64,000 nt of DNA from Candidatus Burarchaeum sp. (GCA_030646255.1 JAUSNF010000021.1:9340-73339); one strand, 5' to 3'; shown: positions 1 to 25,231, numbered from the stretch's first letter. The notes: a model not told the origin generated them from the sequence alone. Program-made: numbers and translations.

Positions 1-112
1 TCTGCAAAGCAGGATACTCGTAGGTGTAGAATATGCGGTCCAACCTGGCGCCTTCCACGAAGCACCAGACTTCAACCCTCTTCCCTGTAGCTTCTTTCAG
101 GCGCACCGCCAT
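1..112 (-). CDS. Partial CDS (N-terminal 37 aa: MAVRLKEATGKRVEVWCFVEGARLDRIFYTYEYPALQ...), continues beyond window start; hypothetical
   Basis: Manual reverse-complement translation from ATG (complement of 110-112) is open to position 1 with protein-like composition; not in the ORF track because it is truncated. Confidence 0.3.
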   Translation of the reverse strand, partial: MAVRLKEATGKRVEVWCFVEGARLDRIFYTYEYPALQ

Positions 113-252
113 GTCAGCATAGCGCACTGAACAACTTCGGGTGCGCGGAAGCTGCCGGCTTGAGCCGGTAGAGGAGCGCACCCAGCAGCTTCCCGATTTC
201 TGGCCGGGCCAGAAATGGGCCCATTGCTCGAAGCGTCGAGCAATCGGGCCGC

Positions 253-684
253 CTAAAGTCCATACACGCCGGAAGCTGAGGGCTTTAGCCCGCAGTTGTT
301 CACGGAGTACGCGCCCCAGATGGCATCTGCCTGCGCAAAGGTTACCGGGTAGGGGCCAGCATACGAAACACCGTAAATCACTGCCTTGCCGTCCTTCGGC
401 GAGGCCCTTTCGTACCAGTGCTCCCGCGCGTTCATCTCAAAGTAGGCGGGATATTGGAGCGAAGACTGGGTGCCTTCATCCCATATGGCCTTCTGCACCG
501 AGCCATTGCCCGCATAGGCATTGATGGCGTCCAGCAGCCTCACAAGGCTTCCATGGTTGCCAGTGCCCGACCAGAAGCCCATGTGCACGGGTTTATAAGG
601 ATTGCTTTCCCTACTCATATCAGTGGGTAAGTCCTGGGGTGCTGGTGCACCTTGAGGTGCACATTCGTCAACTCCAGGGTCCAC
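253..684 (-). CDS. Hypothetical GC-rich ORF; HWYER and GNHG motifs are faintly metallophosphoesterase-like and it may be a 3' remnant
   Basis: 143-aa ORF with a GTG start, in the same frame as and separated only by the TAG stop from the upstream DUF3800 gene; sharp GC rise relative to 691-1320. Confidence 0.25.
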   Translation of the reverse strand: MDPGVDECAPQGAPAPQDLPTDMSRESNPYKPVHMGFWSGTGNHGSLVRLLDAINAYAGNGSVQKAIWDEGTQSSLQYPAYFEMNAREHWYERASPKDGKAVIYGVSYAGPYPVTFAQADAIWGAYSVNNCGLKPSASGVYGL

Positions 685-690
685 TAAACG

Positions 691-1320
691 CTACTTTTCC
701 CAAAGCGGTATGACGCTAGTTTTGCCCTCTATTATTTTGAAGTAGGAATCATCCCCAATGCTGAACTTCCTGTTCACTGCCCAGGCTACGAAATCAACGG
801 CCTGCAGCGCCCTATCTTCATATCCATGCAGGCCTTTTATCTGAAGCCCCTTTTGCGGGAAGGCCTCCTTGAATTTGCCGCATACGTATTCCTCAAACTC
901 CCTGCTCAGCAGCCTGTTGGTTTCCCGCTTTTCATAAACGATCGAAACCTCAGCGCACTCTTCTATCTCCATGGTCTGCAGCAGTATTCCTGCAATGTAG
1001 CTGTAAAGCCTGACTTTTTTATCGTATAACTCTGGGCGTATTTTCTGTTTGTCCACCACTATTGTGGCCAGCCTGCAGTCCATCTCGTTTATGGCCTTAA
1101 GGACATAGCGCCTTATTTCCTCATCTGAATTGTTCGCCTTTATCTGCGGAAGGCTGGAAAGCCTCTTGTTCAGCCGCCGCTCCCGTATTCTTTTCATCTT
1201 GTTCTGTATTGGTTTCGGGTCTCCTGTAATTAGTGCGGATATGTTGAAGTATTTGCTTCCGTGCGTTCCCAGGTCTCCACTTTCATCGACAAAAAGGTAT
1301 AGGCATATTGCATTCTCCAT
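691..1320 (-). CDS. DUF3800-family protein (defence/abortive-infection-associated)
   Basis: N-terminal LYLFVDESGDLG motif typical of DUF3800, ~210 aa, AT-richer than flanks. Confidence 0.6.
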   Translation of the reverse strand: MENAICLYLFVDESGDLGTHGSKYFNISALITGDPKPIQNKMKRIRERRLNKRLSSLPQIKANNSDEEIRRYVLKAINEMDCRLATIVVDKQKIRPELYDKKVRLYSYIAGILLQTMEIEECAEVSIVYEKRETNRLLSREFEEYVCGKFKEAFPQKGLQIKGLHGYEDRALQAVDFVAWAVNRKFSIGDDSYFKIIEGKTSVIPLWEK

Positions 1321-1363
1321 AGTAGCGCCATAAATGAACCTTTTGCCGAAGCTTATAAACCAC

Positions 1364-1401
1364 CCGAGACCGGGGAGCGGGTGACTTCCTTACTTCTCCC
1401 C
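1364..1401. repeat. Direct repeat copy A (core GGGGAGCGGGTGACTTCC)
   Basis: 16-bp identical core plus similar flanks with copy at 2841-2879. Confidence 0.5.
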
Positions 1402-1465
1402 TATGGGATCTTCGCCGCCCGAGTTGATGTAAAGGTTTTTATACCTGCCAAAGGAAAGGAAAAGC

Positions 1466-1693
1466 ATGAAGAACCTCGGGCTTACAGCCGTAATCTGGAA
1501 GGAAGGAAAGCACTACGTTTCGCTCTGCCCGCAGCTCGATGTTTCGAGCTTCGGCTCCACAAAGGCCGAAGCCATCGAGAACCTCAAGGAAGCGGCATCC
1601 CTTTATCTTGAGTCGGCAAAGCAGGTGAAGCTTCCCCTGCCTGCCAGCGTAGTTTACAAGAAATTCGTGCTGCCTCTTAAACTGGCTCAATAG
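1466..1693 (+). CDS. hicB: HicB-like (UPF0150) antitoxin, short form
   Basis: 75 aa; motif ...KEGKHYVSLCPQLD...GSTKAEAIENLKEAASLYLE matches the HicB N-domain; 10 bp upstream of hicA. Confidence 0.6.
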   Translation: MKNLGLTAVIWKEGKHYVSLCPQLDVSSFGSTKAEAIENLKEAASLYLESAKQVKLPLPASVVYKKFVLPLKLAQ

Positions 1694-1702
1694 GGCGGTC
1701 CC

Positions 1703-1936
1703 ATGGCCGGGCTGCGGAACATAACTTCGAAGCAGATGGTCGAGTTCCTGAAATCAAAGGGATTCTCGGAACTGCGCCAGAAGGGAAGCCATCTCTCGAT
1801 GTTTTCCCCTTCAACCAAGCACCTCACCGTAGTTCCCATGCACGGGACAAAAGAAATACCAATAGGCACAATTCTTTCAATTCTCCGCTCAGCGGGCTTG
1901 TCGCGAAAAGAGCTCGAGGAATTTTTAGGAAGATGA
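1703..1936 (+). CDS. hicA: HicA mRNA-interferase toxin
   Basis: 77 aa; KGSHLSMFSP...VPMHGTKEIPIGTILSILRSAGL matches the YcfA/HicA signature. Confidence 0.7.
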   Translation: MAGLRNITSKQMVEFLKSKGFSELRQKGSHLSMFSPSTKHLTVVPMHGTKEIPIGTILSILRSAGLSRKELEEFLGR

Positions 1937-2062
1937 TGCTAAGCGGCTCACCGCCCGATAGTTTCAAGCCGCGTTACCTTTCCTGCCCTTGCCTCTGCCT
2001 TAAGCTTGCGCAGTTCCGCCATCTCTGCCTTGCTGAGGGTTATCTCATGCACGAGCTCGCCC

Positions 2063-2134
2063 CTAATACTTCTGCCTATACGCCTTCTTTTTCTCAACGC
2101 GCTGGTACTTGGTCTGGAACTTCTTCTTGCTCAT
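2063..2134 (-). CDS. Micro-ORF copy 1, 23 aa basic peptide MSKKKFQTKYQRVEKKKAYRQKY
   Basis: Paralogue at 5792-5863; differences between copies are mostly synonymous or conservative; G-rich RBS-like GGGGGG about 8 nt upstream and an AT-rich box further upstream. Confidence 0.4.
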   Translation of the reverse strand: MSKKKFQTKYQRVEKKKAYRQKY

Positions 2135-2180
2135 GCGAATCCCCCCATGCCTATTCTCTGCCGCATCTTCTATTATATCA

Positions 2181-2444
2181 CTATATGCCCGTCCACTCCT
2201 CATAATCTTTATGCGTGCCTATGAAAACAAGTGTTCTTACTGCGGCATCCTTGTCCTCGTGATAGCAGAGTCGGTACTGACCGATTTCGCAAACGCAGAT
2301 TGGAAGCCCCTGCTTCAGGTGCCTTGCAGAAATGCCGCCCGCAAGCTGCTCTATCTTCTTCATCACCCTCACTTTCATTCCCTTGTCTAGCTTCGAGAAA
2401 CAAGCGTCCCAGGCAGGATGGAACCATATCTCCCAGGCGCTCAT
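2181..2444 (-). CDS. RelE/ParE-superfamily toxin
   Basis: 87 aa; ...GQYRLCYHEDKDAAVRTLVFIGTHKDYEEW pattern; 4-nt overlap with the upstream antitoxin. Confidence 0.65.
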   Translation of the reverse strand: MSAWEIWFHPAWDACFSKLDKGMKVRVMKKIEQLAGGISARHLKQGLPICVCEIGQYRLCYHEDKDAAVRTLVFIGTHKDYEEWTGI

Positions 2445-2713
2445 TCAAAGGCCTCCGGGTATTTGCGCCTGACATCTGCCATTGTGAGTGCCTTCTTCTT
2501 TCCGCTCCTGAGCTCCTGCATCATGGCCTGCGCCTTTGCTGCAGCCAGCTCATCCATCACTTCCTCCCTGCTCTTTATCATGTGGTATTCCTTGCCTAGC
2601 GCGAGTATGCCCGCCCTTACTGCCTCATTCTTGGTCTTGAAAAAGCCGGCTTCCACTAGGTGCTTGAGCGTTTCTTCTACGGGACCTTCCAGCCTTACTA
2701 GTAATTCCGACAT
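2441..2713 (-). CDS. ParD/CopG-type ribbon-helix-helix antitoxin
   Basis: 90 aa; N-terminal LVRLEGPVEETLKHLVEAGFFKTKNEAVRAGILAL RHH-like; directly precedes the toxin. Confidence 0.55.
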   Translation of the reverse strand: MSELLVRLEGPVEETLKHLVEAGFFKTKNEAVRAGILALGKEYHMIKSREEVMDELAAAKAQAMMQELRSGKKKALTMADVRRKYPEAFE

Positions 2714-2840
2714 TTTACCACCTGTCTTAGTTATATATCAGATTGATATATAAACATATCACTTTGATATACCTGTTCAAGCTATGCATCATTCCTGCTT
2801 CCGCTCTCCTTCAAAGAATATTGGGCATTTAAAGCCTCGG

Positions 2841-2879
2841 AGAGTGGGGAGCGGGTGACTTGCCCTACCTTTTCTTTCC
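2841..2879. repeat. Direct repeat copy B (core GGGGAGCGGGTGACTTGCC), overlaps the Fic stop codon
   Basis: Matches 1364-1401. Confidence 0.5.
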
Positions 2880-3809
2880 AAGCATCCTCTTCAGTGCCTT
2901 ATACTCCTTCAGCAGCAGATTCAGCGTGGGCCTGAGGTCGTGCCCGTGCTCGTACTTCTGCAACGCCGCATAATACTCGCTCCTGTGCTTCATCTCAATG
3001 TTCACCGGCGGCAGGCCGTTCTTCAGCAGCATGTTGTTCAGCAAAAGCCTACCTACCCGGCCGTTACCGTCCTGGAACGGGTGAATGTTCTCGAACTGAT
3101 TGTGAATGACTGCAGCCAGCACGAGCGGAGGGTACCTGCGCCTGTTCTTGGAATACCAGCGCACCAGCTCGAACAGCAGGCTCCTGACCTGCGAGGAAGG
3201 CGCTCCCTGATGCACAATCCTGCGCGCGCCGTCCACCACCGCCACTTCAACGCCCGGCGGCCTGAGCTTGCCTGCAAAGGGCTTCGAGTTTCCGAAAACA
3301 AGCCTATGAAGCTCGAGGATGAGCGGCAGGGAGATATGCTCCTTGGTCTTCCTGATGAACGCAATCGCATTGGCGACCCCATAGGTTTCCGATATCTCCT
3401 CCTTCGGCTTGTCCGGCCAGTTGTCTTTTTCCAATATTTCTTCAACTTCCTTGTAGCTGACAGTGGAACCTTCGATGGCGTTGGTGTCATAGGCGAAGGA
3501 TTCGACGAATTTCTGCCAGTCTTCTTCTGACAGGTGCGCTATTCTGATTTCCCCCATCGCCTCGAGCGTGCGAAGCTCCTTCAGCTCTTGCGGTGAGAGA
3601 GCGGCTTCAAGCGGGTCCCGCATGCCTGCCTGCGCGCTGATTTTGGCCGTTAGCTTTGCTTCGGCCATGCGCTTAGCTTCCGCAAGCTCGTCGGGGCTGA
3701 GGTTCTCGCCGAGATAGATGCGGAGCTTCCTCACCTTGCCGCCCTTCCGGTACGAGTGTGCGAGATAGTATTTTTTCCCTCCCCTCAGTTTCCTAATTTC
3801 GACGTGCAT
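2865..3809 (-). CDS. fic: Fic/Doc-family protein (AMPylase-type)
   Basis: HPFQDGNGRVGR Fic motif, 314 aa. Confidence 0.85.
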   Translation of the reverse strand: MHVEIRKLRGGKKYYLAHSYRKGGKVRKLRIYLGENLSPDELAEAKRMAEAKLTAKISAQAGMRDPLEAALSPQELKELRTLEAMGEIRIAHLSEEDWQKFVESFAYDTNAIEGSTVSYKEVEEILEKDNWPDKPKEEISETYGVANAIAFIRKTKEHISLPLILELHRLVFGNSKPFAGKLRPPGVEVAVVDGARRIVHQGAPSSQVRSLLFELVRWYSKNRRRYPPLVLAAVIHNQFENIHPFQDGNGRVGRLLLNNMLLKNGLPPVNIEMKHRSEYYAALQKYEHGHDLRPTLNLLLKEYKALKRMLGKKR

Positions 3810-3816
3810 GATGCTA

Positions 3817-3932
3817 TTAGGTGACTACATTTTATAAACATTTGCATTTAGGTGACCACACTCACGTCGTAAGCGGGCCGGCTTTAGGTGACTACACATA
3901 CGTCGTAAGCAAGCGCGTTTGGGTGACTACAC
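3817..3932. repeat. Four iteron-like direct repeats T(T/A)(A/G)GGTGAC(T/C)ACA, spaced 32-36 bp, plus 2x CGTCGTAAGC
   Basis: Read directly at about 3817, 3848, 3884 and 3919; lies between the divergent fic start and the helicase gene. Confidence 0.7.
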
Positions 3933-4179
3933 ACGCACATTTTGACGCCTAAATGCGTGCCTAAAAAAACGGCGTGGATTTTACCACACATTTTTCCATT
4001 TCAATGTAAGCCAATACATCGCTCATTTCTTCCCCGCCGCGTCCCCTACGCCTTCCTCCCGCTGTCGTAACTCCACCGCCTTTTTAACAATTGACTTTCC
4101 ATACGCATCTGCGATCAGCAGGTGGGATATTGGTCGAGCGGTATGAAGAACCTAGCGTGATTTAGGGGATGGCTTCGTT

Positions 4180-5682
4180 ATGGGTAGTGCAGCAGCGTAT
4201 TCAACCAATTCATACTCTAGCGCGCCCAAATCCCTTTTGGAACGGCTCGAACCGCTAAACAAAAGAATTAGCGAGCGCATAGAAAGAGAGAGGCAAGAAG
4301 ATGTGCGCACACCCTTGGCCATGGGGCACTCCAGACGTGTTCACAAGACTAGAATAGTTAGGGACGTAATCGGGACAATGACGCAGTTTCCCCTGCGCCT
4401 CGGTTGGGCATTAACGATACACAAAAGCCAGGGCCTTACTTTGCGGCATGTGTGCCTGGATTTTGGCCATAAAGCTCCCTGGGCCCATGGGCAAACTTAT
4501 GTCGCACTGAGCAGATGCACTGGTTTAGACGGACTTTTTCTGAAGGCGCCCATCAGCGATTCCAATGTAATTGTTGATGATCGGATCCTTGATTTTCTCA
4601 ATGATGCCGGTTTGGGCGATTCTCCTGAACTGGACGGCAATTCAACCAGTTTTTATGCACCCCGTGCTTCTGAAACTAGCACGGGCAGCAAGGAAGAACT
4701 GCTTGAACTGCTGGAAACATCAAAAGACTCATTTTTCATAACGGGCCCTGCCGGAAGCGGCAAATCAACCCTAATCAGGGAATTCGTCAATAATACTGAG
4801 AAAAATTCAGTAATCGTGACGTTTACTGGAATAGCTGCCATCAATGTCGGAGGCCAGACTATCAATTCTTTCTTCAGAATCCCGCCTTTCAATTCCAAAA
4901 CTAGGGAGGCAAAGCCCCTTTCGAAAGAAGAGTGCGAGCTGTACCGGAGCATCGACATCATCCTGATAGATGAAATTTCAATGGTCCGCGCGGATTTATT
5001 TGATGAGATGGATGAACGGATGCGCGAGGCCAAACAAAATGACAGCCCATTTGGCGGAGTCCGCATGCTTCTTTTCGGTGACTATTACCAGCTGCCGCCA
5101 ATAGACGATGTTGGTGAAACCATTGCAAAAGGATACGGAACTGAGTATGCCTTCAGCTCCAATGCCTATCGTTCCATGAACATAAAAAATATAAAACTCC
5201 TGAAAATCCACCGCCAAAAAGAGGATTCCATTTTCTTGACGTGCCTTAATGCCATACGCACCGGAACCCGCAGAGAGCAGTTGAGCTCTGCGCTGGCTCA
5301 CATTAATGCCCGTTTCGGAGTAACACCGCAAGAAACTGCGGCCCGGTCGCTGGTAACTTTAACTACGACTAGGCAGCATGCAAAACAGATCAATGAAACA
5401 ATGCTGGGACAATTATCCGGTGAAGAATACCACTATTCTGCCACAGTAACTGGAAAGTTTCCGATTAAGGAAAATAGGATTCCTGCCGAGCTGGATTTAG
5501 TTCTAAAAGCGGGTGCGCGGGTAATTTTTACACAAAATGACCCGAATCATCAATGGGTGAATGGCAGCAGGGGAATAGTGACTAAGCTTACTGAAGATTC
5601 AATGAATATAAAATTAGACGACGGAACACTGGTTTCACCCAATCGTTTTCAATTTGAGATGTTCGAGCATAAGCTCGGTTAA
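4180..5682 (+). CDS. PIF1-like SF1B helicase, circularly permuted ORF
   Basis: Walker A GPAGSGKST, motif Ia GGQTINSFF, motif II ILIDEISMV and motif III LLFGDYYQLPPI at aa ~190-310, but the normally C-terminal motifs QFPLRLGWALTIHKSQG and GQTYVALSR sit at aa ~68-110; lower GC. Confidence 0.7.
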   Translation: MGSAAAYSTNSYSSAPKSLLERLEPLNKRISERIERERQEDVRTPLAMGHSRRVHKTRIVRDVIGTMTQFPLRLGWALTIHKSQGLTLRHVCLDFGHKAPWAHGQTYVALSRCTGLDGLFLKAPISDSNVIVDDRILDFLNDAGLGDSPELDGNSTSFYAPRASETSTGSKEELLELLETSKDSFFITGPAGSGKSTLIREFVNNTEKNSVIVTFTGIAAINVGGQTINSFFRIPPFNSKTREAKPLSKEECELYRSIDIILIDEISMVRADLFDEMDERMREAKQNDSPFGGVRMLLFGDYYQLPPIDDVGETIAKGYGTEYAFSSNAYRSMNIKNIKLLKIHRQKEDSIFLTCLNAIRTGTRREQLSSALAHINARFGVTPQETAARSLVTLTTTRQHAKQINETMLGQLSGEEYHYSATVTGKFPIKENRIPAELDLVLKAGARVIFTQNDPNHQWVNGSRGIVTKLTEDSMNIKLDDGTLVSPNRFQFEMFEHKLG

Positions 5683-5791
5683 ACTCGTCAGAGGCTGAAG
5701 CACCCTTAAAGCTACTTTCTAGCCGTACTGCTCCTTAATTCCTCCCAGTTGCATTCGCAGTTCCCACCAGCCAGCAGTCTGCCTTCCAATC

Positions 5792-5863
5792 CTAATACTT
5801 CTGCCTATATGCCTTCTTTTTTTCCAGGCGCTGGTATTTTGCCTGGAACTTCTTCTTGCTCAT
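5792..5863 (-). CDS. Micro-ORF copy 2, MSKKKFQAKYQRLEKKKAYRQKY
   Basis: Paralogue of 2063-2134; RBS-like AGGGG upstream; immediately downstream of mscL on the same strand. Confidence 0.4.
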   Translation of the reverse strand: MSKKKFQAKYQRLEKKKAYRQKY

Positions 5864-5992
5864 GCGTATCAACCCCTATCTTCTACGTCTTCTCTACTTT
5901 TTATCAACAATCCTTATCAAAAACGGTATCAGGATGTACAGCGTCGTGCTCCATGTGCTGCCCGCCATTGCAACCAAAATTGCACCTCTCCA

Positions 5993-6319
5993 TCACTTCT
6001 TTTTCTTCCCTGTCGCTTCCTCCTTCATAATCAACTTCACTATGGTGAAGACTACGAGCGCGATTATCATAAAGTCTATCAGCGCGCCCACGAAGTCGCC
6101 TATCATGAACTTTGCAGAACCTATCTGCAGGGTGGCCGTGCGCCAGTCTCCGCCAGGTATGAGCACGCCGATTATGGGCATTATAATGTCAGTCACAAGG
6201 GCAGTAACCATTTTGGTCGAGGCCGCGCCTATGACAAATGCAACTGCCAGTCCTATTACCTGATATTTCTTCAGGAACTCCGCAAATTCGGACAAAACGC
6301 TCATGCGACCACCATGCAT
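5993..6319 (-). CDS. mscL: Large-conductance mechanosensitive channel MscL
   Basis: ...FAEFLKKYQVIGLAVAFVIGAASTKMVTALVTDIIMPIIG... MscL signature, 108 aa. Confidence 0.8.
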   Translation of the reverse strand: MHGGRMSVLSEFAEFLKKYQVIGLAVAFVIGAASTKMVTALVTDIIMPIIGVLIPGGDWRTATLQIGSAKFMIGDFVGALIDFMIIALVVFTIVKLIMKEEATGKKKK

Positions 6320-6379
6320 GAGCTCGGAAAGCGGGTTTATAATTATTTATACTTTACTTGAAATGCATAGTCAGAAGAG

Positions 6380-7222
6380 GTGGTTGTCTTGAAGGGAATT
6401 TACTTATTCGCGTTGTTGGCCGTTTTCAGTCTTCTTATGGCAGGCTGCATTAACCTGCCGGGCCAGCAGGCTCAGCCAGCGCCTGAAAAGAATGCGCAGA
6501 CTGGCACCAACTTCGAGATCGAGCTCTACAAGGCGCAGGTGGACAAGGCAGCCCTGCAGGAGAAGTATGATGCTGCAACGGCAGACCTAAGGCAGTGCCT
6601 GGCAGACACGGCCGCATGCGAGGGCAAGCCCGCCGAGAAGTGCCCTGCACCTGAGAACTGCGATGCCATAAAGGCGGAAAGGGATTCTGCGCTTTCAAGG
6701 CTCTCAACCTGCATAGACGAGAAGGCCGCCATAGCCGGCTCGACGGGAACGTGCAATTCAGCTCTTTCAACGTGCCTTTCCGACAAGTCAGGTTTGACAA
6801 CCTCGCTTGCAACATGCACTGCGGACAAGAGCGCCCTGCAGCTTAGTCTAACTGCGGCGCAGAATGCAGTGCCGAACACTACGGTATGGCACTATGCACC
6901 CGGCAATTTAGGCGCTGAGGGCGGCACCGGCTACAGGACAACAGACTACAAGGTGCCCAGCAGCCTGAAGAAGGCGCTCATAGGGCTGGATTATTCAGGA
7001 GGCAGTGACGCGTTCTTCGGGCCAGGCGTAGTGTCCGGCCTAGTGAGGTGGTACACCATGACCTCGGTGGACGGCGTGCGCTTCAGCTCGGACATAGATG
7101 ACACTGTCGTTATCGACCTGTCCGTTGGCAATCCTCTGAAGGTGAAGACAGTCGAGTTCGCGGCAGGCACTTCAAAGGAGGGCTTTGCACTAAAACGCGT
7201 GATTGCAATTTACATCCAATGA
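6380..7222 (+). CDS. Putative secreted lipoprotein, Cys-rich with a coiled-coil
   Basis: Signal peptide followed by the LLMAGC lipobox-like motif; no recognisable domain. Confidence 0.4.
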   Translation: MVVLKGIYLFALLAVFSLLMAGCINLPGQQAQPAPEKNAQTGTNFEIELYKAQVDKAALQEKYDAATADLRQCLADTAACEGKPAEKCPAPENCDAIKAERDSALSRLSTCIDEKAAIAGSTGTCNSALSTCLSDKSGLTTSLATCTADKSALQLSLTAAQNAVPNTTVWHYAPGNLGAEGGTGYRTTDYKVPSSLKKALIGLDYSGGSDAFFGPGVVSGLVRWYTMTSVDGVRFSSDIDDTVVIDLSVGNPLKVKTVEFAAGTSKEGFALKRVIAIYIQ

Positions 7223-7327
7223 GCGCTTCCAGTCATTTGCGCGCAAGCTTCAGGCCTATGAATGCAAGAAGCGCCAGCACGATTAGCGCGCCCACTCACG
7301 TGCAGCTTGCAGTGCCTGCAGAAAATC

Positions 7328-8044
7328 CTATGCGCGCATTTCCCTGTGGCGCACAAACGCCGCACCGGCAATGAAAAGCAGCCCGAATGCCGGCAGGCAG
7401 CATACCGAGCCCCCGCCCTGGTCCTGCTCAATCTTCTGGAAAGCCTGCTTTAGCTCGTCCTTATTCTCCGCAGTATAATACTTGCCTCCGCCCGCAGCTG
7501 CAATCTGCTGGTGCTGCGCCTTGGCAGCCGGGTCATCGGCGAGCGAGTAGCTGATGACGTTTATCACTGCTATTCCCTCATCCGTAGTCTTCTGGGCCTC
7601 GAGCACCGGGTCCCCGCCGCAGTTCTCCTCGCCGTCAGTAAGCAGTATTATGGTACCCTTCCCGCCCATCTCGCTCTTCACGTACTCCCTTCCCTCTGCA
7701 ATCGCCTCTGCTATGGGCGTCCAGTCTCCGGTGCCTATGCCGTTTATAGAGCTTCTCAGCTCCTGCTTGTTCGAAGTGAGCTCCCTTATCACGCGTATGT
7801 CGCCTGTCTGCGGGTTCCCTCCGTCATCGCACGTGTGGAATTTCATGACGGCGAACTGGTCTCCCTGCGATGCATCTATGAAATCTATGGCCGCGGCCTT
7901 GGCCGCCTCCAGCTTCGTCTCCCCGCTGTCCAGGTAGTCGTCCATGCTGGTGCTGGCATCCATTATGACAAGGAAGGAGCCTGCCGATACTGTGGCTGCG
8001 AGAAGCAGCAAGAATAGTCCTGTTTTTGCAATATATCTTTTCAT
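7328..8044 (-). CDS. Secreted von Willebrand factor A domain protein with a C-terminal membrane anchor
   Basis: Signal peptide, MIDAS DASTSMDD, C-terminal LPAFGLLFIAGAAFVRHR PGF-CTERM-like tail. Confidence 0.7.
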   Translation of the reverse strand: MKRYIAKTGLFLLLLAATVSAGSFLVIMDASTSMDDYLDSGETKLEAAKAAAIDFIDASQGDQFAVMKFHTCDDGGNPQTGDIRVIRELTSNKQELRSSINGIGTGDWTPIAEAIAEGREYVKSEMGGKGTIILLTDGEENCGGDPVLEAQKTTDEGIAVINVISYSLADDPAAKAQHQQIAAAGGGKYYTAENKDELKQAFQKIEQDQGGGSVCCLPAFGLLFIAGAAFVRHREMRA

Positions 8045-8180
8045 ACAGTTGTAATTCTTGCTTCCTTTAAAAACCTAACTGCCACCGCCAACAATCGCGT
8101 GCAATTCTCGTGCCTGCCCGGGCAGTGATGCAAAACTATAAATAAGACTGCTTCCAACCCCTTTCCAGAGGTGTTTACCT

Positions 8181-8729
8181 ATGCCGCCAGTGAAGAAAAA
8201 ACCGATTCATTTCAAGCATCATGAAATTTACACAGGCCCGCGCTCCGGCACGGACATAGATTACTCTCACTACTATTCTAGCGCAGGCACGAATGTGCAC
8301 TTCCTTGTGGCTGTGTTCATAGGCGCGCTGGTCTATTCCGTAATTTCATTCATCGTGCACATGGCGGGCGCAATTGCCGACATGGGCTATTACTTCATGC
8401 CAGACTATTTCAGCGTGTGGAGCAAGCTCATGATGCCTGTTGCAGGCCCGCCGCCAATTGAGTTCACCTATGCCTCACTGCTCTTCGGCTTCATAGCCGG
8501 CTTGCTCTTCACCTACTGCTTCTATCTAGTAAGGAACTCAATGCCGGGCAAGGGCATTGCAAAGGGGCTGAACTACGGAATGTTCGTAATGCTCCTGGCA
8601 GGCCTGCCCTTCTACATGACAATGACTCTGCTCATCAACCTGCCGCAGGGCCTGATGCTCTCGTGGCTCGTGCAGACATTCATAATCTACGAGCTGTCGG
8701 GCATTGCAGTTGCAAAGCTGGTGCGCTGA
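8181..8729 (+). CDS. Hypothetical multi-pass membrane protein
   Basis: Four or five hydrophobic segments. Confidence 0.35.
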   Translation: MPPVKKKPIHFKHHEIYTGPRSGTDIDYSHYYSSAGTNVHFLVAVFIGALVYSVISFIVHMAGAIADMGYYFMPDYFSVWSKLMMPVAGPPPIEFTYASLLFGFIAGLLFTYCFYLVRNSMPGKGIAKGLNYGMFVMLLAGLPFYMTMTLLINLPQGLMLSWLVQTFIIYELSGIAVAKLVR

Positions 8730-9032
8730 GCTGGCGTACAGATGTGAACGCATGGACAAGCGCCTGATGGCAAAGCTCAAGTTTGCACTTCTTGTGCTAG
8801 CCGAGCTAGCGGGCCTTGTCTTTATCTTCCTCAGCAGGGAAAAAGTCAACCTCATGTTCATGTCGGACTATGGGTCTATTTTTGCAATGATCGTTTTTGC
8901 TACGTTCTGCACATCTTTTGAGCTGAGGCTCCTGGAAGAGATGAAGCAGGCCTAGCACCAGCGCTTTTTCAGGCGGCAGGCTCGGCATTAGATATAAATA
9001 CCCCCTCAGGCCAAAACTGGGCAGGCGATCGG

Positions 9033-12000
9033 TTGGTTTTCATAAAGGAATTGTCACTGCGGAACTTCAAATCATTCAAGAGCGTCGACATTAAGCTCAG
9101 CCCCGGCCTTATCTGCCTGGCAGGCCCGAATGGCTCTGGGAAGTCGAACGTTACTGACGCCGTGCGCTTTGCGCTGGGCGAGATGAGCCTGAAGCAGCTC
9201 AGGCCTGAGGGCAAGAAGGCGAGCGGCCTGATTAGGCGGGGCTCGAGCCATGCTGTCGTAGGCGTGGTTTTCGGCGGGGAAGCGGGACTGGAAATAAAGC
9301 GGGCCATACGTGAAGATGGCAAGATGGCCTACAGGCTTGATGGCAAGCGGGCTACGAGAACATCAGTAGTTGAGAGCCTGCGCAAGGTGGGCGCAGAGGT
9401 GGGCGAACACAACGTCATCGCGCAGGGCGAGGTTGACCGAGTAGTGAAGATGAATGCGAAAGAAAGGCGCGAAATTATCGACCGCGCTTCGGGAGTTTAC
9501 GAGTTTGAGGAGAAGAAAAAGGAGGCGCTTTCAGAACTCAACAAAGTAGAGAGCCGCATAAGCGAGGCCAACATTGCGATAGGTGAGCGCGAGGGCGTGC
9601 TCTCGGAGCTCGAGAAGCAGAAGGACGAGGCCCTGCGTTATGCGGAGCTGAGCAAGGAGCTCAAGCGCGCCAAAGGTACGCTCATACATGCGGAAATGAT
9701 TAGGCTTGAAAAAGAGTTTGAGGGCAGTGCCAAGAAGGCTGCAGATTTGCAGGCCAAGTTTGATGCATTGCAGCATGAGCTCGAGGGGCTTGAGGCTAAA
9801 TTGGAAGGGCTTGAGAGCGAGCGCTCCAAAATAGCGAGCATCATAAATGAGCAGGCAGGCAAGGAAGGCCTGCGCGAGGAGCTTGAAAGGCTGCGCACTG
9901 AGATTGAGAGCAACTCGCGGCTGAGGGTTGAGAAGGAAAGGCAGGTCGGCGAGCTGCGCAAGTCCATAGCTGCGCAGGATGTCGAGCTCAAATCATTCGA
10001 GACAAAAATGGTCAATGCTCTCAAGGAAGCAGGAGAGTCAGAGAAGCAGGCCAAGGCTTTGGCAGGCGAGATAGCTGCGGGTGAGAAGGAAAGGTCCCAC
10101 GTTTTGTCAGGCGCTGGAGGCAAGCGCGCAGCAGAGCTGCGCAAGCGCCACTCAGAGCTGCTCAGGCAGATGGAGGAGAAGAAGGGCGCCGCGCTCGAGT
10201 CTGAGTCTGCTGCTGTACGCGATTCTGAAATTGCAAAGCTCAAGGAAGAGGAGCTCGCGCTAATAGCCGGCGAGCTGGGCGAGGGAAATGGGCGGGCGGC
10301 TGAGCTTGAGTCGCAGCTCGGGGAGCTGAACGGAAAGCTTGCAATATTTGCAAAAGAGGAGGATGACATTTTCGAGCGCGAGAAGGAAATCAACAAGCGG
10401 CTGCCGGACTATGACCGCAGGATACTTGAGATTGGGAACAAACTGCCTGAAATGAGAATGGTGAGCGGCAAAAGGCCTGCAGTGGATGCAGTGATAAGCG
10501 CTTCAAAGGCAGGCCAGCTCGAGGGCATTGTAGGTACTGTTTCAGACTCCTGCACATTCGAAGAGAAATACGCGCTTGCGATTGAGGCGAGCGCAGGCCC
10601 AAGACTTCACTATATACTAACTGAAGATGCCGATGCAGCAATGGATGCTATTGAGCACCTGAAGAAGACTAAAGCGGGCAGGTGCTCGTTCATACCTCTC
10701 GACCGCAAGATTTCAAACCTGCCGCCCGAGGCCATGCAGTTCGAGAAGTCGCAGGGCGTGCTAGGTTTTCTCATCAACCTGGTTCAGTTCGACAAGAGGC
10801 ACCTGAACGCGCTCCACTATGTCTTCGGCGACACGTTGCTGGTAAAGGACTCGGAAACTGCAAAGCGGCTTACGGGCAAGGTGCGCACGGTCACGATGGA
10901 CGGCGAGCTCTTCGAAAGGTCAGGAATAATCACGGGCGGCCCCTTCGGTTCAGGCTCCTCGCTCAAGAGCAGGATCGAGCTCGAAAGGCTTGAAAAGCAG
11001 ATGGATGAGGTGCAGACGGCGAAGAAGGCCGCGCTCGCGGAGCTCTATTCCTCGCGTGATTCGCTGGGCCAGCGGAGAAGGGAAAAGTCAGGGCTTGAGG
11101 TCAAGGCGCGCGGGCTTGAGATTGAGCTCGAGGGCATGCGCGTGCAGGGCGAGAGGAAGAAGGGACTGGTGCAGAAGCGCTCACAGTTTGAAAATGACTT
11201 GCAGAATTTGAAGTCCGCCATCACAGAAAACCAGAAGACTGCGGGCGAGTTCCGGGAAGCGCTTTCGCGCATAGAGTCCGAGCTTGCATCAATCTCAAAA
11301 ATGCTTGATAGCCAGGAAGTGCCTGAGGAAAAGGCAGAGGAGCTCGCACTAATAGAGGGCAAGATAACTGAGCTGGGCGACAAGAGGCGCGGGCTCGACA
11401 ATCTGGCTTCATCCAAGAAGGCCGAAGTGAAGATGCTCGAGGAGAATATGGCGAAGGGCGAGGGTGAGCTCGAGGTTGCGAGAGCCTCGCTCAAGGAACT
11501 GCTTGGTGCAATCGAGCAGATGCGGAAGATTGTTGAGGCTGATGGCGGGCTTCTGAAGGAAAAGGAAGAAAAGATGAAGGAGGCGAGCTCCAAGATGGCC
11601 TCGCTCTACGAGCAGCAGACGAAGATGGGCGCCGAGGTTGAGAAATATTCTAAGGAAAAGGGCAAGGCGCAGTTCAACTTCACGCGGGTATCAAACGAGC
11701 TGGTCGAGATGAAGTCTACCAGGCAGATGCATGAGATGCGGCTGGGCGATTTGAAGGCCGAGTGGGCGGAGTACAAGGAAATCGAGACCATGCAGCTCTC
11801 GAAAGATGAGCTTGAGGACAGGATGAAACAGGTTGAAGGCGAGCTCAACGCCATGGGCATGGTCAACATGCTGGCGCCCGAGCAGTACGAGCAGAAGAGC
11901 GCTGAGCTGAAGGAGAAGAAGGAGATTATCGGGAAGCTTAGCGAGGAGAAGAAGGCCGTGCTGAGCATGATTGAGGAGATTGACAGCAGGAAAGCAGAAA

Positions 12001-12473
12001 TATTCCTGCAGACATTCAGGGCTGTGGATGAGAACTTCCGCAAGATATTTAATTACGCTTTGCCCGGCGAGGGCATGCTGCTGCTGGACAATCCTGACGA
12101 CATTTTCGACAGCGGGCTGCAGATAAAGGTAAGGGTGGACGGCAAGGACCACTACATAGAGGCCAAGTCTGGCGGTGAGCGATCACTTCTCGCACTCCTC
12201 TTTGTATTCGCCCTTCATTCTACAAGGCCCTCTTCATTCTACGTGCTGGACGAGGCGGATGCCGCGCTAGACAAGGAGAACAGCAAGAAGCTCGCGGACA
12301 TGCTCAAGCAGCTCTCGAAGAAGGCGCAGTTCATAGTAGTCACGCACAATGATACCGTGCTTTCTGCGGCAGACATCGCGCTCGGCGTGACAAGGCAGGA
12401 CGGGGTTTCAAAAATAGTCGGAATAGAGTTCAAGAAAATGGCGACAGCCTCGGCTTCAGCCCCGGCGGGCTGA
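9033..12473 (+). CDS. smc: SMC chromosome segregation ATPase
   Basis: Walker A GPNGSGKSN, long coiled coils, hinge, signature SGGERSL, Walker B LDEADAALD. Confidence 0.9.
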   Translation: MVFIKELSLRNFKSFKSVDIKLSPGLICLAGPNGSGKSNVTDAVRFALGEMSLKQLRPEGKKASGLIRRGSSHAVVGVVFGGEAGLEIKRAIREDGKMAYRLDGKRATRTSVVESLRKVGAEVGEHNVIAQGEVDRVVKMNAKERREIIDRASGVYEFEEKKKEALSELNKVESRISEANIAIGEREGVLSELEKQKDEALRYAELSKELKRAKGTLIHAEMIRLEKEFEGSAKKAADLQAKFDALQHELEGLEAKLEGLESERSKIASIINEQAGKEGLREELERLRTEIESNSRLRVEKERQVGELRKSIAAQDVELKSFETKMVNALKEAGESEKQAKALAGEIAAGEKERSHVLSGAGGKRAAELRKRHSELLRQMEEKKGAALESESAAVRDSEIAKLKEEELALIAGELGEGNGRAAELESQLGELNGKLAIFAKEEDDIFEREKEINKRLPDYDRRILEIGNKLPEMRMVSGKRPAVDAVISASKAGQLEGIVGTVSDSCTFEEKYALAIEASAGPRLHYILTEDADAAMDAIEHLKKTKAGRCSFIPLDRKISNLPPEAMQFEKSQGVLGFLINLVQFDKRHLNALHYVFGDTLLVKDSETAKRLTGKVRTVTMDGELFERSGIITGGPFGSGSSLKSRIELERLEKQMDEVQTAKKAALAELYSSRDSLGQRRREKSGLEVKARGLEIELEGMRVQGERKKGLVQKRSQFENDLQNLKSAITENQKTAGEFREALSRIESELASISKMLDSQEVPEEKAEELALIEGKITELGDKRRGLDNLASSKKAEVKMLEENMAKGEGELEVARASLKELLGAIEQMRKIVEADGGLLKEKEEKMKEASSKMASLYEQQTKMGAEVEKYSKEKGKAQFNFTRVSNELVEMKSTRQMHEMRLGDLKAEWAEYKEIETMQLSKDELEDRMKQVEGELNAMGMVNMLAPEQYEQKSAELKEKKEIIGKLSEEKKAVLSMIEEIDSRKAEIFLQTFRAVDENFRKIFNYALPGEGMLLLDNPDDIFDSGLQIKVRVDGKDHYIEAKSGGERSLLALLFVFALHSTRPSSFYVLDEADAALDKENSKKLADMLKQLSKKAQFIVVTHNDTVLSAADIALGVTRQDGVSKIVGIEFKKMATASASAPAG

Positions 12474-12475
12474 CG

Positions 12476-13516
12476 ATGATATATATGTACAAGAAAAGAC
12501 TGCAGAACTTTTTCACCAATTCAAAAGCAGACGCGCTCATCCTGCACAACGGCGATTCCGAGGGCTATTTTGACATCAACTACCGCTACTTCATGGGCCT
12601 TGAGTTCGACAACTCCATCCTGCTTGCGCGCCGCACTGGAAGCGCGATGCTGCTCTGCACCTCGCTGAACTATGATTATGCGCGCGAGAAGGCGCGCGTG
12701 CCAGTGGAAAAGATTGAGCGCAAGCTGCTGCCGCAGCAGCTCAAGAAATTCATGGCCAGCTGCAAGAGCATAGGCATAAACAAGCGCTCGCTGCGCCTCT
12801 CAACTTTTGAGGTTTTGAGAAAGGCAGGCAAGGGCAAAAAGTTTATGGATGTGAGCGAGGAGCTGGGCATGAATAGGGCTATGAAGGATGGCGAGGAGCT
12901 CGCGATAATGAAAAAGTGCATTACAAAAACGCGCGGCATTCTCGAATCCGTTGAAGTGCGCGCAGGCATGAAGGAAGAGGACATCCTGAAGAATTTGCGG
13001 GTGCAGGCGCTCGAGGCAGGCGCCGACATTTCCTTCCCGCCCATTGTGCTGAGCGGCCCGAAGGCCAGCATACCCCACGGCGTGACCGGTGGAAGAAGAA
13101 TAGGGGCCAATGAAGCTGTGCTTATAGACTTCGGACTGAAAATGAACGGCTACTGCTCAGACCTGACCAGGTGCTATTTCACGGGCGCGTGCAAGCAGGA
13201 GCGCTCTATTTATGAGAAACTACAGAATGTGCAGGAATCGCTGGCAGACTATGGCCACGCAGGCACGCGCATCTCTGAGTTTGTGAAAAAGTCCGACGCG
13301 CTCATTAGGCAGGCCGGCCTGCCCAAGCTGCCCCACTCAATCGGCCATGGTTTGGGCCTGTATGTGCATGAAGCTCCCTCGCTGTGCGCAGACTCCAAGA
13401 AGAAATTTGAGGCAGGCATGACATTGGCCATAGAGCCCAGCTACTACGGCAAGAAATTCGGCTTGCGCTACGAGAATGATTTTGTGGTAGGCGGAAAGAA
13501 ACTGCGGATGCTCTAG
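12476..13516 (+). CDS. M24-family Xaa-Pro peptidase
   Basis: PHSIGHGLGLYVHEAPS metal-binding motif. Confidence 0.8.
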   Translation: MIYMYKKRLQNFFTNSKADALILHNGDSEGYFDINYRYFMGLEFDNSILLARRTGSAMLLCTSLNYDYAREKARVPVEKIERKLLPQQLKKFMASCKSIGINKRSLRLSTFEVLRKAGKGKKFMDVSEELGMNRAMKDGEELAIMKKCITKTRGILESVEVRAGMKEEDILKNLRVQALEAGADISFPPIVLSGPKASIPHGVTGGRRIGANEAVLIDFGLKMNGYCSDLTRCYFTGACKQERSIYEKLQNVQESLADYGHAGTRISEFVKKSDALIRQAGLPKLPHSIGHGLGLYVHEAPSLCADSKKKFEAGMTLAIEPSYYGKKFGLRYENDFVVGGKKLRML

Positions 13517-13527
13517 CTGCAATCACT

Positions 13528-15714
13528 CTAGTCCAGGAAAGCTTCCGGCCTCGGAGGCTCCTTGGGCTCGCCCTTGCGCTCGCGCACCTGGTAGACAATC
13601 TTCTGCTGCAGCTCCTTGTTCAAAGGCTCGAAGCCTGCGTACTCAGTGTACCAGATTGCGCGGCCCTGCGTGGCGCCGCGGATGCTGTTCGAGAAGCCGA
13701 ACATTTCTGCAACAGGCACCTTGGCATTTACAGTCACAATCTCGCCTTCCTGCTCGATGTTCAGAACCTGCCCGCGCCTTCCCTGTATCTGGCTGATAAT
13801 CGCGCTCATGTAATCCTGCGGCGCCTGCACGAGCAGCTTCTGCTTGGGCTCGAGCAGCTGCACGCCTGCCAAAAGCATGGCAGCATAAATCGGGTTGCGC
13901 ACTGCCGGAATTACCTGCGCAGGCCCCCTGTGAACCGGGTCCTCGTGGATTTTCGCATCAACAACATAGACCATCATGCCCGTAACCTTCTCCTTTGCCA
14001 AGGGGCCTTTCATGCACGCTTCCTCAAATGCCTGTATGACGAGCTCCATAATCTCGTTTATGTACTGCACTCCCTTTGTCGCATCTATCAGTATGTTTGC
14101 GTTGAAAACGTCCGCAATGTTGCGCGCGTCCTCGCGCTCCATGCCAGCTGTGATGAACGGCTCCCAGAAGCCCTTGCCCTTCGGCTTCTTGTTCGGTATC
14201 GTCCCATCAGTAATTGCCTGCAGAAGCGTAGCGGGCATCGGCTCAACAGTCACCTTAATCTTGGTGTGCTTGTTGGGCGACTTGCCCTCAACAGGCCCTG
14301 CCGAGCCTATAATAGTCTCACGGTAAACGACAATCGGGGGCGAGGTCTCGATGGCCACGCCTTTCTCCTTCGTAATCTTGTACTCGATAATCTCAAGGTG
14401 CAGCTCGCCCATGCCAGAGAGCAGGTGCTCGCCGGTCTCCTGGTTGATTTCAACCCTGAGCGTCGGGTCTTCCTTCGCAAGCTGCCTCAGAATCTCAATG
14501 AGCTTCACAAGGTCCGAGGTATTCTTGGCCTCGATAGACTTGGTCACGACAGGCTCGGAATAATGCTTAATTTGCTCGAAAGGATCCATATCTCCCTCGC
14601 TTATGGTCTCGCCCACATACAAATCGTGCAGGCCTATAATCGCCACAATGTTGCCAGCAGGCACCTTTTCTACAAGCACGCGGTCAATGCCCATGTAAAC
14701 GCCAACCTGCTGCACCTTCTCGCTCACGTGCTTGGAGGCGAGCGTCAGCTCCGTTCCCTTTGTAACCGTGCCCGAGAATATGCGCGCAATGCCGACCTCG
14801 CCGGCATGCTCGTCAATAGTGACTCCGAAAATCACACCGCACACCTTGCCCTTTGCGTCAGCCGAGGTCATGCCCTTGCCGTACTCGCTCTGCAAATCTC
14901 CTTTCCAAAGAACTGGAATGCGGTACTTCTGCGCAGTCATCGGGTTGGGAAGGTGCGTAATCGCCATCTCGAGAATAACCTCGTCAATGGGCCCCTTTAC
15001 CATCAGCGTCTTGTGGTCCTGCTTCGAGCAGTAGTCGTAGATGGTCTTGAAGTTCAGCCCGCTGCGCTTCATGTGCGGCACGCTCACGGCCCACTTGTTG
15101 TATGCAGAGCCGAATGTCACATTGCCCTTCTCGGGCGAGATGAGCCACTCCTCCTTGTACTCGCCCGCATAATTCGTGATGAGCTTGTTCACGCCCGCAA
15201 TGATTTTCATGAGCTTTTCCTGCATTGCTTCGGGCGTGAGCTTAAGCTCGTTGATGAGCCTGTCAATCTTGTTGATGAAAAGAGTTGGCTTGGACTTTTC
15301 CTTGAGCGCCTGCCTCACCACCGTCTCGGTCTGCGGCATGATGCCCTCAACTGCGTCCACGACGAGAATTATGCCGTCGACAGCCCTCATCGCCCTCGTC
15401 ACGTGGCCTCCGAAGTCCACGTGCCCGGGCGTATCAATTAAATTAATCAAGTGCGGCTTGCCCTGGTAGTTGAAGCCCAGGGAAATGTTTGCCGCCTTAA
15501 TCGTGATGCCGCGCGCCTGCTCCTGCTCATCATAGTCAAGCACGCGCTGCTCGCCCGCAAGCTCCTTTGAGATGAGCCCTGCGCGGGCAACAAGAGAATC
15601 AGACATCGTGGTCTTGCCATGGTCGACGTGCGCCACAATCGCCATGTTGCGCACCTGCTCGAGGTTGCCCATGATGGACTGCACTTCATCGACAACATAT
15701 TCTTTTCGAACCAT
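13528..15714 (-). CDS. fusA: Elongation factor 2 (aEF-2)
   Basis: AHVDHGKTT G-domain, 728 aa, downstream of S7. Confidence 0.95.
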   Translation of the reverse strand: MVRKEYVVDEVQSIMGNLEQVRNMAIVAHVDHGKTTMSDSLVARAGLISKELAGEQRVLDYDEQEQARGITIKAANISLGFNYQGKPHLINLIDTPGHVDFGGHVTRAMRAVDGIILVVDAVEGIMPQTETVVRQALKEKSKPTLFINKIDRLINELKLTPEAMQEKLMKIIAGVNKLITNYAGEYKEEWLISPEKGNVTFGSAYNKWAVSVPHMKRSGLNFKTIYDYCSKQDHKTLMVKGPIDEVILEMAITHLPNPMTAQKYRIPVLWKGDLQSEYGKGMTSADAKGKVCGVIFGVTIDEHAGEVGIARIFSGTVTKGTELTLASKHVSEKVQQVGVYMGIDRVLVEKVPAGNIVAIIGLHDLYVGETISEGDMDPFEQIKHYSEPVVTKSIEAKNTSDLVKLIEILRQLAKEDPTLRVEINQETGEHLLSGMGELHLEIIEYKITKEKGVAIETSPPIVVYRETIIGSAGPVEGKSPNKHTKIKVTVEPMPATLLQAITDGTIPNKKPKGKGFWEPFITAGMEREDARNIADVFNANILIDATKGVQYINEIMELVIQAFEEACMKGPLAKEKVTGMMVYVVDAKIHEDPVHRGPAQVIPAVRNPIYAAMLLAGVQLLEPKQKLLVQAPQDYMSAIISQIQGRRGQVLNIEQEGEIVTVNAKVPVAEMFGFSNSIRGATQGRAIWYTEYAGFEPLNKELQQKIVYQVRERKGEPKEPPRPEAFLD

Positions 15715-24896: not shown

Positions 24897-24997
24897 TCAA
24901 TCATCTACCATTATTCCGAAACTTCTGTTCTTCAGCCCGCAGTCCTTTGCAACTTCCTTGCCCGTCTGCCTTCCGTCCGGCCCTCGCCCTACTTTTT

Positions 24998-25231
24998 TTA
25001 TTCTATTACTAGCCTGTAATACCTGATCTCGATTTTCTTGTCAACATCGCCCTTGCGTATAATCCTGACAACATCGCCCGGCTCAGCCATGCCTTTTATA
25101 ATCACGTCATTGGCCGAAATTTTCGGCAACTGCTCGGGCTTCAGTCCGCTTTCAGAGAAGAACTTCTCCCTCTCGCCCCCGGATAGTATTTCGTGTACAG
25201 GAATTAGGATATGCTCTGGGGACTCGGCCAA
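24998..25231 (-). CDS. rpoH: RNA polymerase subunit H
   Basis: 77 aa Rpb5-like; HILIPVHEIL... Confidence 0.85.
   Translation of the reverse strand: MAESPEHILIPVHEILSGGEREKFFSESGLKPEQLPKISANDVIIKGMAEPGDVVRIIRKGDVDKKIEIRYYRLVIE

Follow-up and report, generated by a model that had tools for sequence, protein, structure and literature searches.

What kind of genetic entity gathers DUF3800, toxin-antitoxin (TA), Fic and PIF1-like helicase genes within about 5 kb beside mscL in Candidatus Burarchaeum sp.? The genes lie at the left end of a 64,000-nucleotide (nt) stretch of DNA, hereafter the window (GCA_030646255.1 JAUSNF010000021.1:9340-73339), and Burarchaeum, a member of the DPANN/Micrarchaeota (order Burarchaeales), is known from a 1.2-Mb metagenome-assembled genome of 57.6% G+C (GC) (PMC8561730). 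A preliminary description of the window offered two answers: an integrated plasmid-like element, with iterons and helicase as its replication module, or a recombination hotspot built from insertions. We conclude that the region 690-5990 is probably a hypervariable chromosomal locus beside mscL, made of small gene blocks, and not a single integrated replicon. Rightward of the region lie mscL and then genes for SMC, an Xaa-Pro peptidase, EF-2, ribosomal protein S7 and RNA polymerase A subunits, and because these core genes (SMC to RNA polymerase A) follow downstream, the window is chromosomal.

We enumerated the open reading frames (ORFs) of at least 40 amino acids (aa) in positions 1-9000 and scanned the candidates with Pfam, NCBIfam, PADLOC and PHROGs. 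All seven mobile or defence-type genes reported for these ~5 kb are found where they had been placed, the HicB-, RelE- and ParD-like ones through weak profile matches. Together with the small features that accompany them, they are as follows:

691-1320, minus strand: DUF3800 gene, 209 aa; Pfam PF12686 1.3e-9, PADLOC DUF3800_VII 1.3e-4

1466-1693, plus strand: HicB-like antitoxin, 75 aa; PHROG 497 9.6e-5, Pfam HicB_lk_antitox 0.077, below cut-off

1703-1936, plus strand: HicA toxin, 77 aa; Pfam PF07927 1.7e-16, PHROG toxin 1.6e-17

2063-2134, minus strand: micro-ORF 1, MSKKKFQTKYQRVEKKKAYRQKY, 23 aa, isoelectric point (pI) 10.4, within repeat copy D1a (2062-2146)

2181-2444, minus strand: RelE/ParE-like toxin, 87 aa; PHROG 1213 1.5e-5, full length, Pfam ParE 0.024, below cut-off

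2441-2713, minus strand: ParD/RelB-like antitoxin, 90 aa; TIGR02606 0.0034, a weak match

2865-3809, minus strand: Fic gene, predicted class II and FICD-like, 314 aa; Pfam 1.2e-18, PADLOC SoFic 1.8e-32

4321-5682, plus strand: PIF1-like superfamily 1B (SF1B) helicase ORF, frame open from 4180 (500 aa), ATG at 4321; Pfam PIF1 1.3e-26

5792-5863, minus strand: micro-ORF 2, MSKKKFQAKYQRLEKKKAYRQKY, within repeat copy D1b (5791-5875)

5894-5983, minus strand: 90-nt 3' remnant of a DUF1211/TMEM175-like gene that is intact in the relative L004

5993-6319, minus strand: mscL, the conserved right anchor; Pfam MscL 8e-24, orthologs in the relatives L001 and L004

The hotspot reading is borne out by two relatives, one free of the island and one that carries part of it with three indels, and by block compositions that differ. 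The first, Ca. B. australiense LFW-281_7 (L001), comes from a genome-collection scan with the SMC N-terminus; its core genes are 78-83% identical to those of the window in nucleotides, and its SMC is 80% identical in aa. Its mscL is flanked by secreted and surface-protein genes, with no island gene beside it; even the mscL-SMC stretch is mostly non-syntenic with the window. The second, L004, is one 2,658-bp metagenome contig from a scan with a degenerate micro-ORF pattern. Its order is HicA, micro-ORF, RelE, ParD, the repeat D4 (described below), an intact DUF1211/TMEM175-like gene (982-1608) and mscL, and the island genes that it shares with the window are 91-94% identical in nucleotides, which places it closer than L001. 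The full gene set is thus present at this locus in neither relative. Four blastn segments connect L004 to the window:

L004 1-188 and window 1753-1940: 93% identity

L004 191-983 and window 2060-2860: 91% identity

L004 982-1071 and window 5894-5983: 94% identity

L004 1599-1941 and window 5968-6313: 82% identity

Subtracting L004 from the window leaves three indels with clean junctions (+119 nt, +3,033 nt and -527 nt). The 119-nt segment lacking in L004 (1941-2059) holds a 34-aa ORF (1948-2052, minus strand) with no family match; the 3,033-nt segment (2861-5893) holds Fic, the repeated boxes next to it, the helicase and micro-ORF 2; and the missing 527 nt are those of DUF1211, lost in the window between direct repeats TTGCARCCAAAWTTGC. 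At third codon positions, the window and L004 share an identity of 0.87-0.98 in HicA, the micro-ORF, RelE and ParD, and of 0.64 in the adjacent mscL. Because the former values are far above the latter, the TA block has, to judge from these sites, been exchanged between the two lineages far more recently than the lineages diverged, direct evidence of an exchangeable accessory region. To the right of mscL (6380-8100) there are a 280-aa secreted protein and a vWA protein, also unshared with L001 and L004; because of these unshared genes, the variable zone reaches as far as ~8.1 kb and encloses mscL as an islet of conservation.

The 3,033 nt lacking in L004 are themselves the sum of two parts:

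2861-3930: Fic block, GC 0.55, of native composition, bracketed by the 8-nt repeat GGGTGACT

3931-5893: low-GC (0.472) segment of 1,963 nt with the helicase and micro-ORF 2, bracketed by CTAC (3927-3930, 5894-5897)

A two-step origin of the difference, which we infer from these junctions, would explain more than a single event. On the two-step view, the perfect box that abuts the DUF1211 stop codon in L004 would be the leftover of a box-to-box deletion of Fic. For the locus as a whole, we propose that small self-contained blocks are gained, lost and exchanged by recombination at short repeats, the order of events being a reconstruction. Five such blocks would work independently: DUF3800; hicBA; parD-relE with its micro-ORF; Fic with its boxes; and the foreign 1.96-kb segment with helicase and micro-ORF 2.

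Base composition sets the parts of the region apart from one another. Outside the region, the mean GC of 1-kb windows is 0.547 (standard deviation 0.029). The reported fall of GC in the DUF3800 and helicase genes is real: DUF3800 stands at 0.470 (z about -2) and positions 4250-6500, from the helicase through mscL, at 0.45-0.47 (z -2.6 to -3.3). Fic, at 0.56, is in the normal range. GC at third codon positions (GC3) is 0.476 in PIF1, 0.58-0.66 in DUF3800 (0.586), the TA genes and mscL, and 0.743 in Fic, with core genes at 0.69-0.78. Atypical composition is thus strong in PIF1, moderate in DUF3800 and the TA genes, and nil in Fic; the helicase gene is compositionally foreign, and from the GC3 differences the parts of the region have several origins. 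Low GC is not confined to the island, as it runs on through mscL to about 6400.

At the left end, GC steps from 0.581 (1-690) to 0.470 (691-1320) at the DUF3800 stop codon, and to that extent the abrupt left edge described there exists. Its neighbour, however, is no housekeeping gene, as had been stated of the surroundings, but a GC-rich orphan:

253-582, minus strand: left-flank ORF, 109 aa from an internal ATG, no family match

This ORF has only six relatives in 5.8 billion proteins, and one longer homolog sits in an unrelated gene context. Because the left neighbour is an orphan, what is demonstrated at position 691 is a step in composition rather than the edge of an island. Elsewhere in the window, the lowest-GC stretch lies outside the island, at 24900-26100 (0.43, 1-kb windows), flanked by the RNA polymerase B gene (23322-24896) and a 247-aa ORF (25391-26134) without a Pfam match, and the strongest tetranucleotide outlier holds a 794-aa ORF (60613-62997), likewise without one.

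The feature on which a plasmid origin had leaned is the "iteron cluster" in front of the helicase gene, which we find to be tied to Fic:

3817-3829, 3848-3860, 3884-3896 and 3919-3931, minus strand: four Fic boxes, TTAGGTGACTACA, spaced by 31/36/35 nt

Read in the Fic sense, the box is (T)GTAGTCACC(T/C)A, 13 nt long. The Fic TATA box, TTTATAAA, occupies 3831-3838, between boxes 1 and 2: box 1 lies between TATA and the start codon, box 2 just upstream of TATA, and two more lie beyond, in an upstream sequence that ends ...TGTGGTCACCTAAATGCAAATGTTTATAAAATGTAGTCACCTAATAGCATC-ATG. We fetched five independent loci of the Fic family from different genomes, which have unrelated gene neighbourhoods and no helicase or Rep gene beside Fic. 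The boxes recur in all five, at the following positions:

L005: 4950-4990 and 5935-5965

L007: 4982-4990 and 5938-5967

L009: 4950-4990 and 5957-5965

L012: 2950-2989 and 3941-3970

L013: 2950-2990 and 3942-3972

An exact GTAGTCACC box is found at about -19 in 5/5 loci, and a second exact one at about -51, 31-32 nt upstream, in 4/5 (it is degenerate in L007), with the TATA box between the two at all five. At the Fic stop codon there is an exact inverted box (AGGTGACTAC) in 4/5, degenerate in L009 (AGGTGACCAC), followed in 5/5 by a direct box 21-23 nt beyond it; inverted and direct box make roughly a 10-bp palindrome. The GTAGTCACC 9-mer occurs nowhere else in these five loci of 7-11 kb. Because the boxes recur with Fic in 5/5 other genomes that lack an adjacent helicase, the cluster belongs to Fic, and what had been called iterons is, by this conservation, a cis-element of the Fic gene, present in four upstream copies in the window and in two in the relatives. 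The position of the boxes round the TATA box indicates transcriptional control: most likely, they would act as operators at which a DNA-binding protein occludes the TATA box and the transcription start, and this protein may possibly be Fic's own N-terminal beta-sheet domain. In L005, a second, divergent Fic paralog (L005:3668-4591, minus strand) stands back to back with the first and has its own upstream repeat, TGTAGCCAT, in three copies (4595-4671), which suggests that the boxes change in sequence along with the Fic paralog.

The paired-box pattern also occurs in 43 viral contigs of IMG/VR, none of which encodes Fic, a number near chance expectation. Dense TGTAGTCACCC arrays, some with an inverted copy, are seen in IMG/VR contigs L014, L016, L020, L027, L035, L036, L044, L049 and L054, and they look like unrelated iteron-like tandem repeats that share the 9-mer by chance.

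The Fic protein itself looks like a native, widely conserved gene of the lineage and not like imported cargo. Its family, of ~313 aa, is 63-70% identical over the full length, comprises more than 100 Micrarchaeota protein clusters and has members on chromosomal contigs, as long as 1.7 Mb, from Micrarchaeota. The translation contains TNAIEG as inhibitory motif and HPFQDGNGRVGR at the active site, in columns that are invariant in 58 homologs, which marks the protein as a predicted class II, self-inhibited AMP-transferase. FICD is both its best sequence match in the PDB (1.9e-26) and the top Foldseek match of its AF2 model (pLDDT 79). In the model, the N-terminus carries an extra three-stranded beta meander of ~60 residues, then a long helix; Foldseek returned FICD-type matches over the Fic core only, and none for this N-terminal domain. 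The NCBIfam SoFic model scores 48 for this protein, against a cut-off of 550. SoFic and other single-gene systems are enriched in DPANN archaea according to a survey (PMC12988326), and the wide conservation of Fic in Micrarchaeota fits that enrichment. Any defence role of the island genes, a SoFic-type anti-phage role included, is putative and read from profile matches. A widespread FICD-like Fic gene of Micrarchaeota is thus marked by a conserved set of two TATA-flanking boxes and a stop-codon palindrome, which offers a testable handle on Fic control in organisms that are not culturable alone.

The helicase departs from its family in another way. Its motifs are complete (Walker A GPAGSGKST, DEISM, GDYYQLPP, HRQ, TIHKSQG and YVALSR), and the Pfam models Pif1_2B and UvrD_C_2 match the ORF as well, in pieces that come in this order on the plus strand:

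4345-4605: C-terminal piece with motifs V and VI

4606-4680: linker

4681-5673: N-terminal piece, from Walker A to the 2B/SH3 domain

ORF residues 168-481 align to residues 9-316 of an ordinary bacterial Pif1 (Walker A to 2B/SH3), and residues 64-139 to its residues 347-421 (motifs V and VI). Likewise, residues 26-342 of the homolog P0005 fall on 4693-5673 and its residues 347-432 on 4345-4605. When the pieces are projected onto 84 homologs, a distance of 0-10 residues, and never an overlap, separates where one ends from where the other starts; the two pieces are thus exactly complementary. They are joined in frame by ~28 residues, and the ATG at 4321 and the stop codon at 5680 stand just outside the homologous parts. 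The canonical order, 1A, 2A (first half), 2B, 2A (second half, with V and VI), is violated; by this alignment, the ORF is circularly permuted, its motif V/VI piece coming before the one with Walker A. A junction-spanning query against 1.84 billion representative proteins had, among its best 150 matches, a single-stretch match to its own entry only and two-stretch matches to the other 149, and all Pif1 structures in the PDB match the ORF in two stretches. The searchable literature yielded no description of either a circularly permuted Pif1 protein or Micrarchaeota Fic boxes.

The permutation could have arisen by capture and re-opening of a circularised gene-sized fragment, or by tandem duplication followed by trimming at both ends. 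A tblastn search for remnants of a second copy (E up to 50, over 3700-6000) gave noise and no trace of a tandem-duplication intermediate. The best relatives share ~45% identity, and the few whose source is named are mostly candidate-phyla-radiation bacteria. An AF2 model made with normal-order homologs has pLDDT below 50 in the C-terminal piece (residues 1-86) and is uninformative on its docking into domain 2A. We consider it more likely that the ORF is a recent non-functional remnant than a functional permutant; that it encodes a working natural SF1B circular permutant, with the second half of 2A at the N-terminus on a 28-residue tether, seems doubtful. Either way, the permuted ORF would be of interest, in the one case for what it shows of the rearrangement of captured foreign DNA, in the other as a new helicase topology.

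The possibility that the permuted helicase and the block order were made by the assembler, through a chimeric join of metagenomic reads from co-occurring strains, deserves weighing here, the source genome being metagenome-assembled. Independent Logan contigs (SRR13727526) break at 2185, ~1530 and ~128, which hints at strain heterogeneity. Yet one contig from this second assembler is 100% identical over 2185-13809, a stretch that includes Fic, the boxes, the permuted helicase, micro-ORF 2 and mscL; no repeat at the helicase junctions is long enough to mislead a k-mer assembler; and the order of TA genes, micro-ORF and D4 is supported independently by L004. We regard such an artefact as very unlikely. 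The Logan contigs span 128-1530 and 2185-13809 of the window, position 2185 lying just inside the 3' end of relE (stop codon), and the breaks may mean that strains with different left parts of the locus co-exist.

How, then, do the explanations that treat the region as a mobile unit fare? An integrated plasmid-like element that replicates by means of iterons and PIF1 helicase and carries TA, Fic and DUF3800 genes for addiction and defence would account for four direct repeats in the intergenic region that adjoins the helicase gene, for TA genes as typical plasmid cargo, for the low GC of part of the region and for the repeat pairs D1 and D4. It is nevertheless very unlikely, because the supposed iterons overlap the Fic TATA box and start, accompany Fic at five of five other loci where no helicase stands beside it and have spacings (31/36/35 nt) out of helical phase, D1 and D4 interleave and bracket no unit, and the helicase stands apart from the rest of the region in composition and is permuted. 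Nor do the scanned ORFs of at least 40 aa in 1-9000 include a gene for Rep, primase, MCM, integrase, transposase or partition. The sole tRNA gene of the window is at 31138, and no attachment-site (att) pair flanks the region. The proposed comparison with plasmids and viruses gave no useful match: blastn found only a 57-nt match, in Fic, among 72,556 plasmids and none among 50,697 phages, and IMG/VR viral contigs contain no close PIF1 relative and no micro-ORF. With its iterons turned into Fic promoter boxes and no Rep, integrase or att site in sight, the integrated plasmid falls.

A more modest proposal makes 2861-5893, or just its Fic block, a mobile cassette for which the GTAGTCACC boxes would serve as recombination sites or targets. 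This fits the single clean indel relative to L004, whose breakpoint lies within a perfect L004 box (GTAG|TCAC), the five genomes in which Fic stands between same-orientation boxes in unrelated neighbourhoods, and the bracketing of the Fic block by GGGTGACT and of the low-GC block by CTAC. We still judge the cassette unlikely: neither the block nor its surroundings encode a recombinase; the right junction recreates no box half, which argues against a simple site-by-site exchange; the GTAG of L004 doubles as the last lysine codon and stop of DUF1211, so that the match may be coincidental; Fic and helicase differ in origin by composition; and operators are a simpler account of boxes round a TATA box.

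Several points weigh against our own account of a mosaic hotspot. The window begins only ~690 bases before DUF3800, on a contig that has ~10.7 kb more, so that an integrase or the boundary of a larger element may lie further left. The locus is covered by two relatives only, and L004 begins inside hicA, which excludes DUF3800 and hicB from the comparison. The junctions carry only 2-8 nt of repeat, which points to no specific mechanism of block movement, and the operator function of the boxes is an inference from position. For the helicase, at least 453 stop-free codons also fit a functional gene over a remnant.

The repeats that interleave with the gene blocks, as the preliminary description had noticed, were checked window-wide by uniqueness in the 64 kb and by shuffling; D1, D4 and the boxes are each unique there, with 0 expected by shuffling:

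2062-2146 and 5791-5875: repeat D1, 88% identical over 85 nt, containing the micro-ORF

1351-1387 and 2825-2861: repeat D4, with a 16-nt exact core

On the minus strand, D4a (1351-1387) shows a stop codon, the core AAGTCACCCGCTCCCC and then a TATA-like TTTATAA, which sits ~33-40 nt upstream of the DUF3800 start. In D4b (2825-2861), the core GCAAGTCACCCGCTCCCC lies 6 nt past the Fic stop and is a degenerate downstream Fic box (GCAAGTCACCC); the left breakpoint of the 3,033-nt indel falls in this copy. A conserved hairpin was considered for D4 and rejected, the stem of D4a and L004 being lost in D4b. None of D1, D4 and the boxes belongs to a known RNA family, since Rfam matched nothing in 1-7000 even with E up to 1.

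D1 is limited to the micro-ORF plus a short leader. Both copies of the peptide read MSKKKFQ(T/A)KYQR(V/L)EKKKAYRQKY (23 aa, pI 10.4). Between the two copies, 2/0/5 changes fall on codon positions 1/2/3; between copy 1 and its L004 ortholog there are three, all synonymous. Because the substitutions are synonymous or biased towards third positions, the constraint is of coding type, and by this pattern the micro-ORF evolves like a translated, coding gene. It has no Pfam, NCBIfam or Rfam match and was found in this lineage only, in metagenome and IMG/VR scans; it escapes standard gene callers.

In the hicBA pair, the HicB-like gene stops 9 nt ahead of hicA, and a HicA domain with an adjacent HicB fits the HicAB definition, with a weak HicB assignment. 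The ParD-like ORF overlaps the start of the toxin gene by 4 nt, an operon layout that fits RelE/ParE-ParD; the RelE-like toxin has no match in the PDB. Between the window toxin (2181-2444) and its counterpart L004:312-575, there are six amino-acid changes and one synonymous change, the opposite of what is seen relative to L004 in ParD (1 amino-acid, 9 synonymous) and HicA (1 and 10), and the RelE-like toxin may therefore be under relaxed or diversifying selection.

Set against known systems, the parts of the island differ in how far they conform. Iteron-type plasmid origins are direct repeats bound by Rep, and the window resembles them in its four direct copies of a 13-nt motif in an intergenic region by a gene of DNA metabolism; it differs in having no Rep gene, in the irregular 31/36/35 spacing and in repeats that straddle the Fic TATA and start, and also in that the boxes, 3' copies included, are kept with Fic where no helicase stands beside it. 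The TA pairs share with the HicAB and RelBE/ParDE type II systems the arrangement of two small adjacent genes per pair, and in ParD-RelE the antitoxin gene comes first, as is typical, and overlaps the toxin gene by 4 nt. Unlike these systems, hicB stands ahead of hicA in the window, the antitoxin assignments are weak, and parD-relE is trailed by a conserved basic micro-ORF of 23 aa that is foreign to known systems.

The helicase resembles the Bacteroides Pif1 (PDB 5FTB, 5FHD) and 8BNS in its 41-46% identity, its full set of motifs and its 2B/SH3 domain, whereas it starts with the segment that ends a normal Pif1, placed ~28 residues from the normal N-terminus. Fic has in common with FICD/HYPE (PDB 4U04, 6I7G, 5JJ6) and SoFic (3EQX, 3ZCN) the motif HPFxDGNGRxxR and the inhibitory TxxxEG. 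Where FICD has a TPR domain, the window protein is predicted to have a beta meander and a long helix; compared with SoFic, it has this same N-terminal part and no C-terminal winged helix; and it is set apart from both by its tie to conserved GTAGTCACC boxes, with a defence role that is putative.

Finally, the island as a whole is akin to chromosomal defence and TA islands of bacteria and archaea in its stand-alone genes (HicAB, RelE/ParD, Fic of SoFic type, DUF3800) at a locus that varies among relatives and in its partly atypical composition. It departs from them in that the available sequence shows no integrase, tRNA gene or flanking att repeats, in its very small size (~5 kb, as a mosaic of 0.1-2 kb blocks) and in a Fic gene that looks native rather than imported. 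As this shows, small hotspots in which TA and defence-type genes change fast persist even in DPANN genomes of 1 Mb; this island is an ordinary accessory hotspot of that kind, and its unusual parts are the permuted helicase and the Fic box system.

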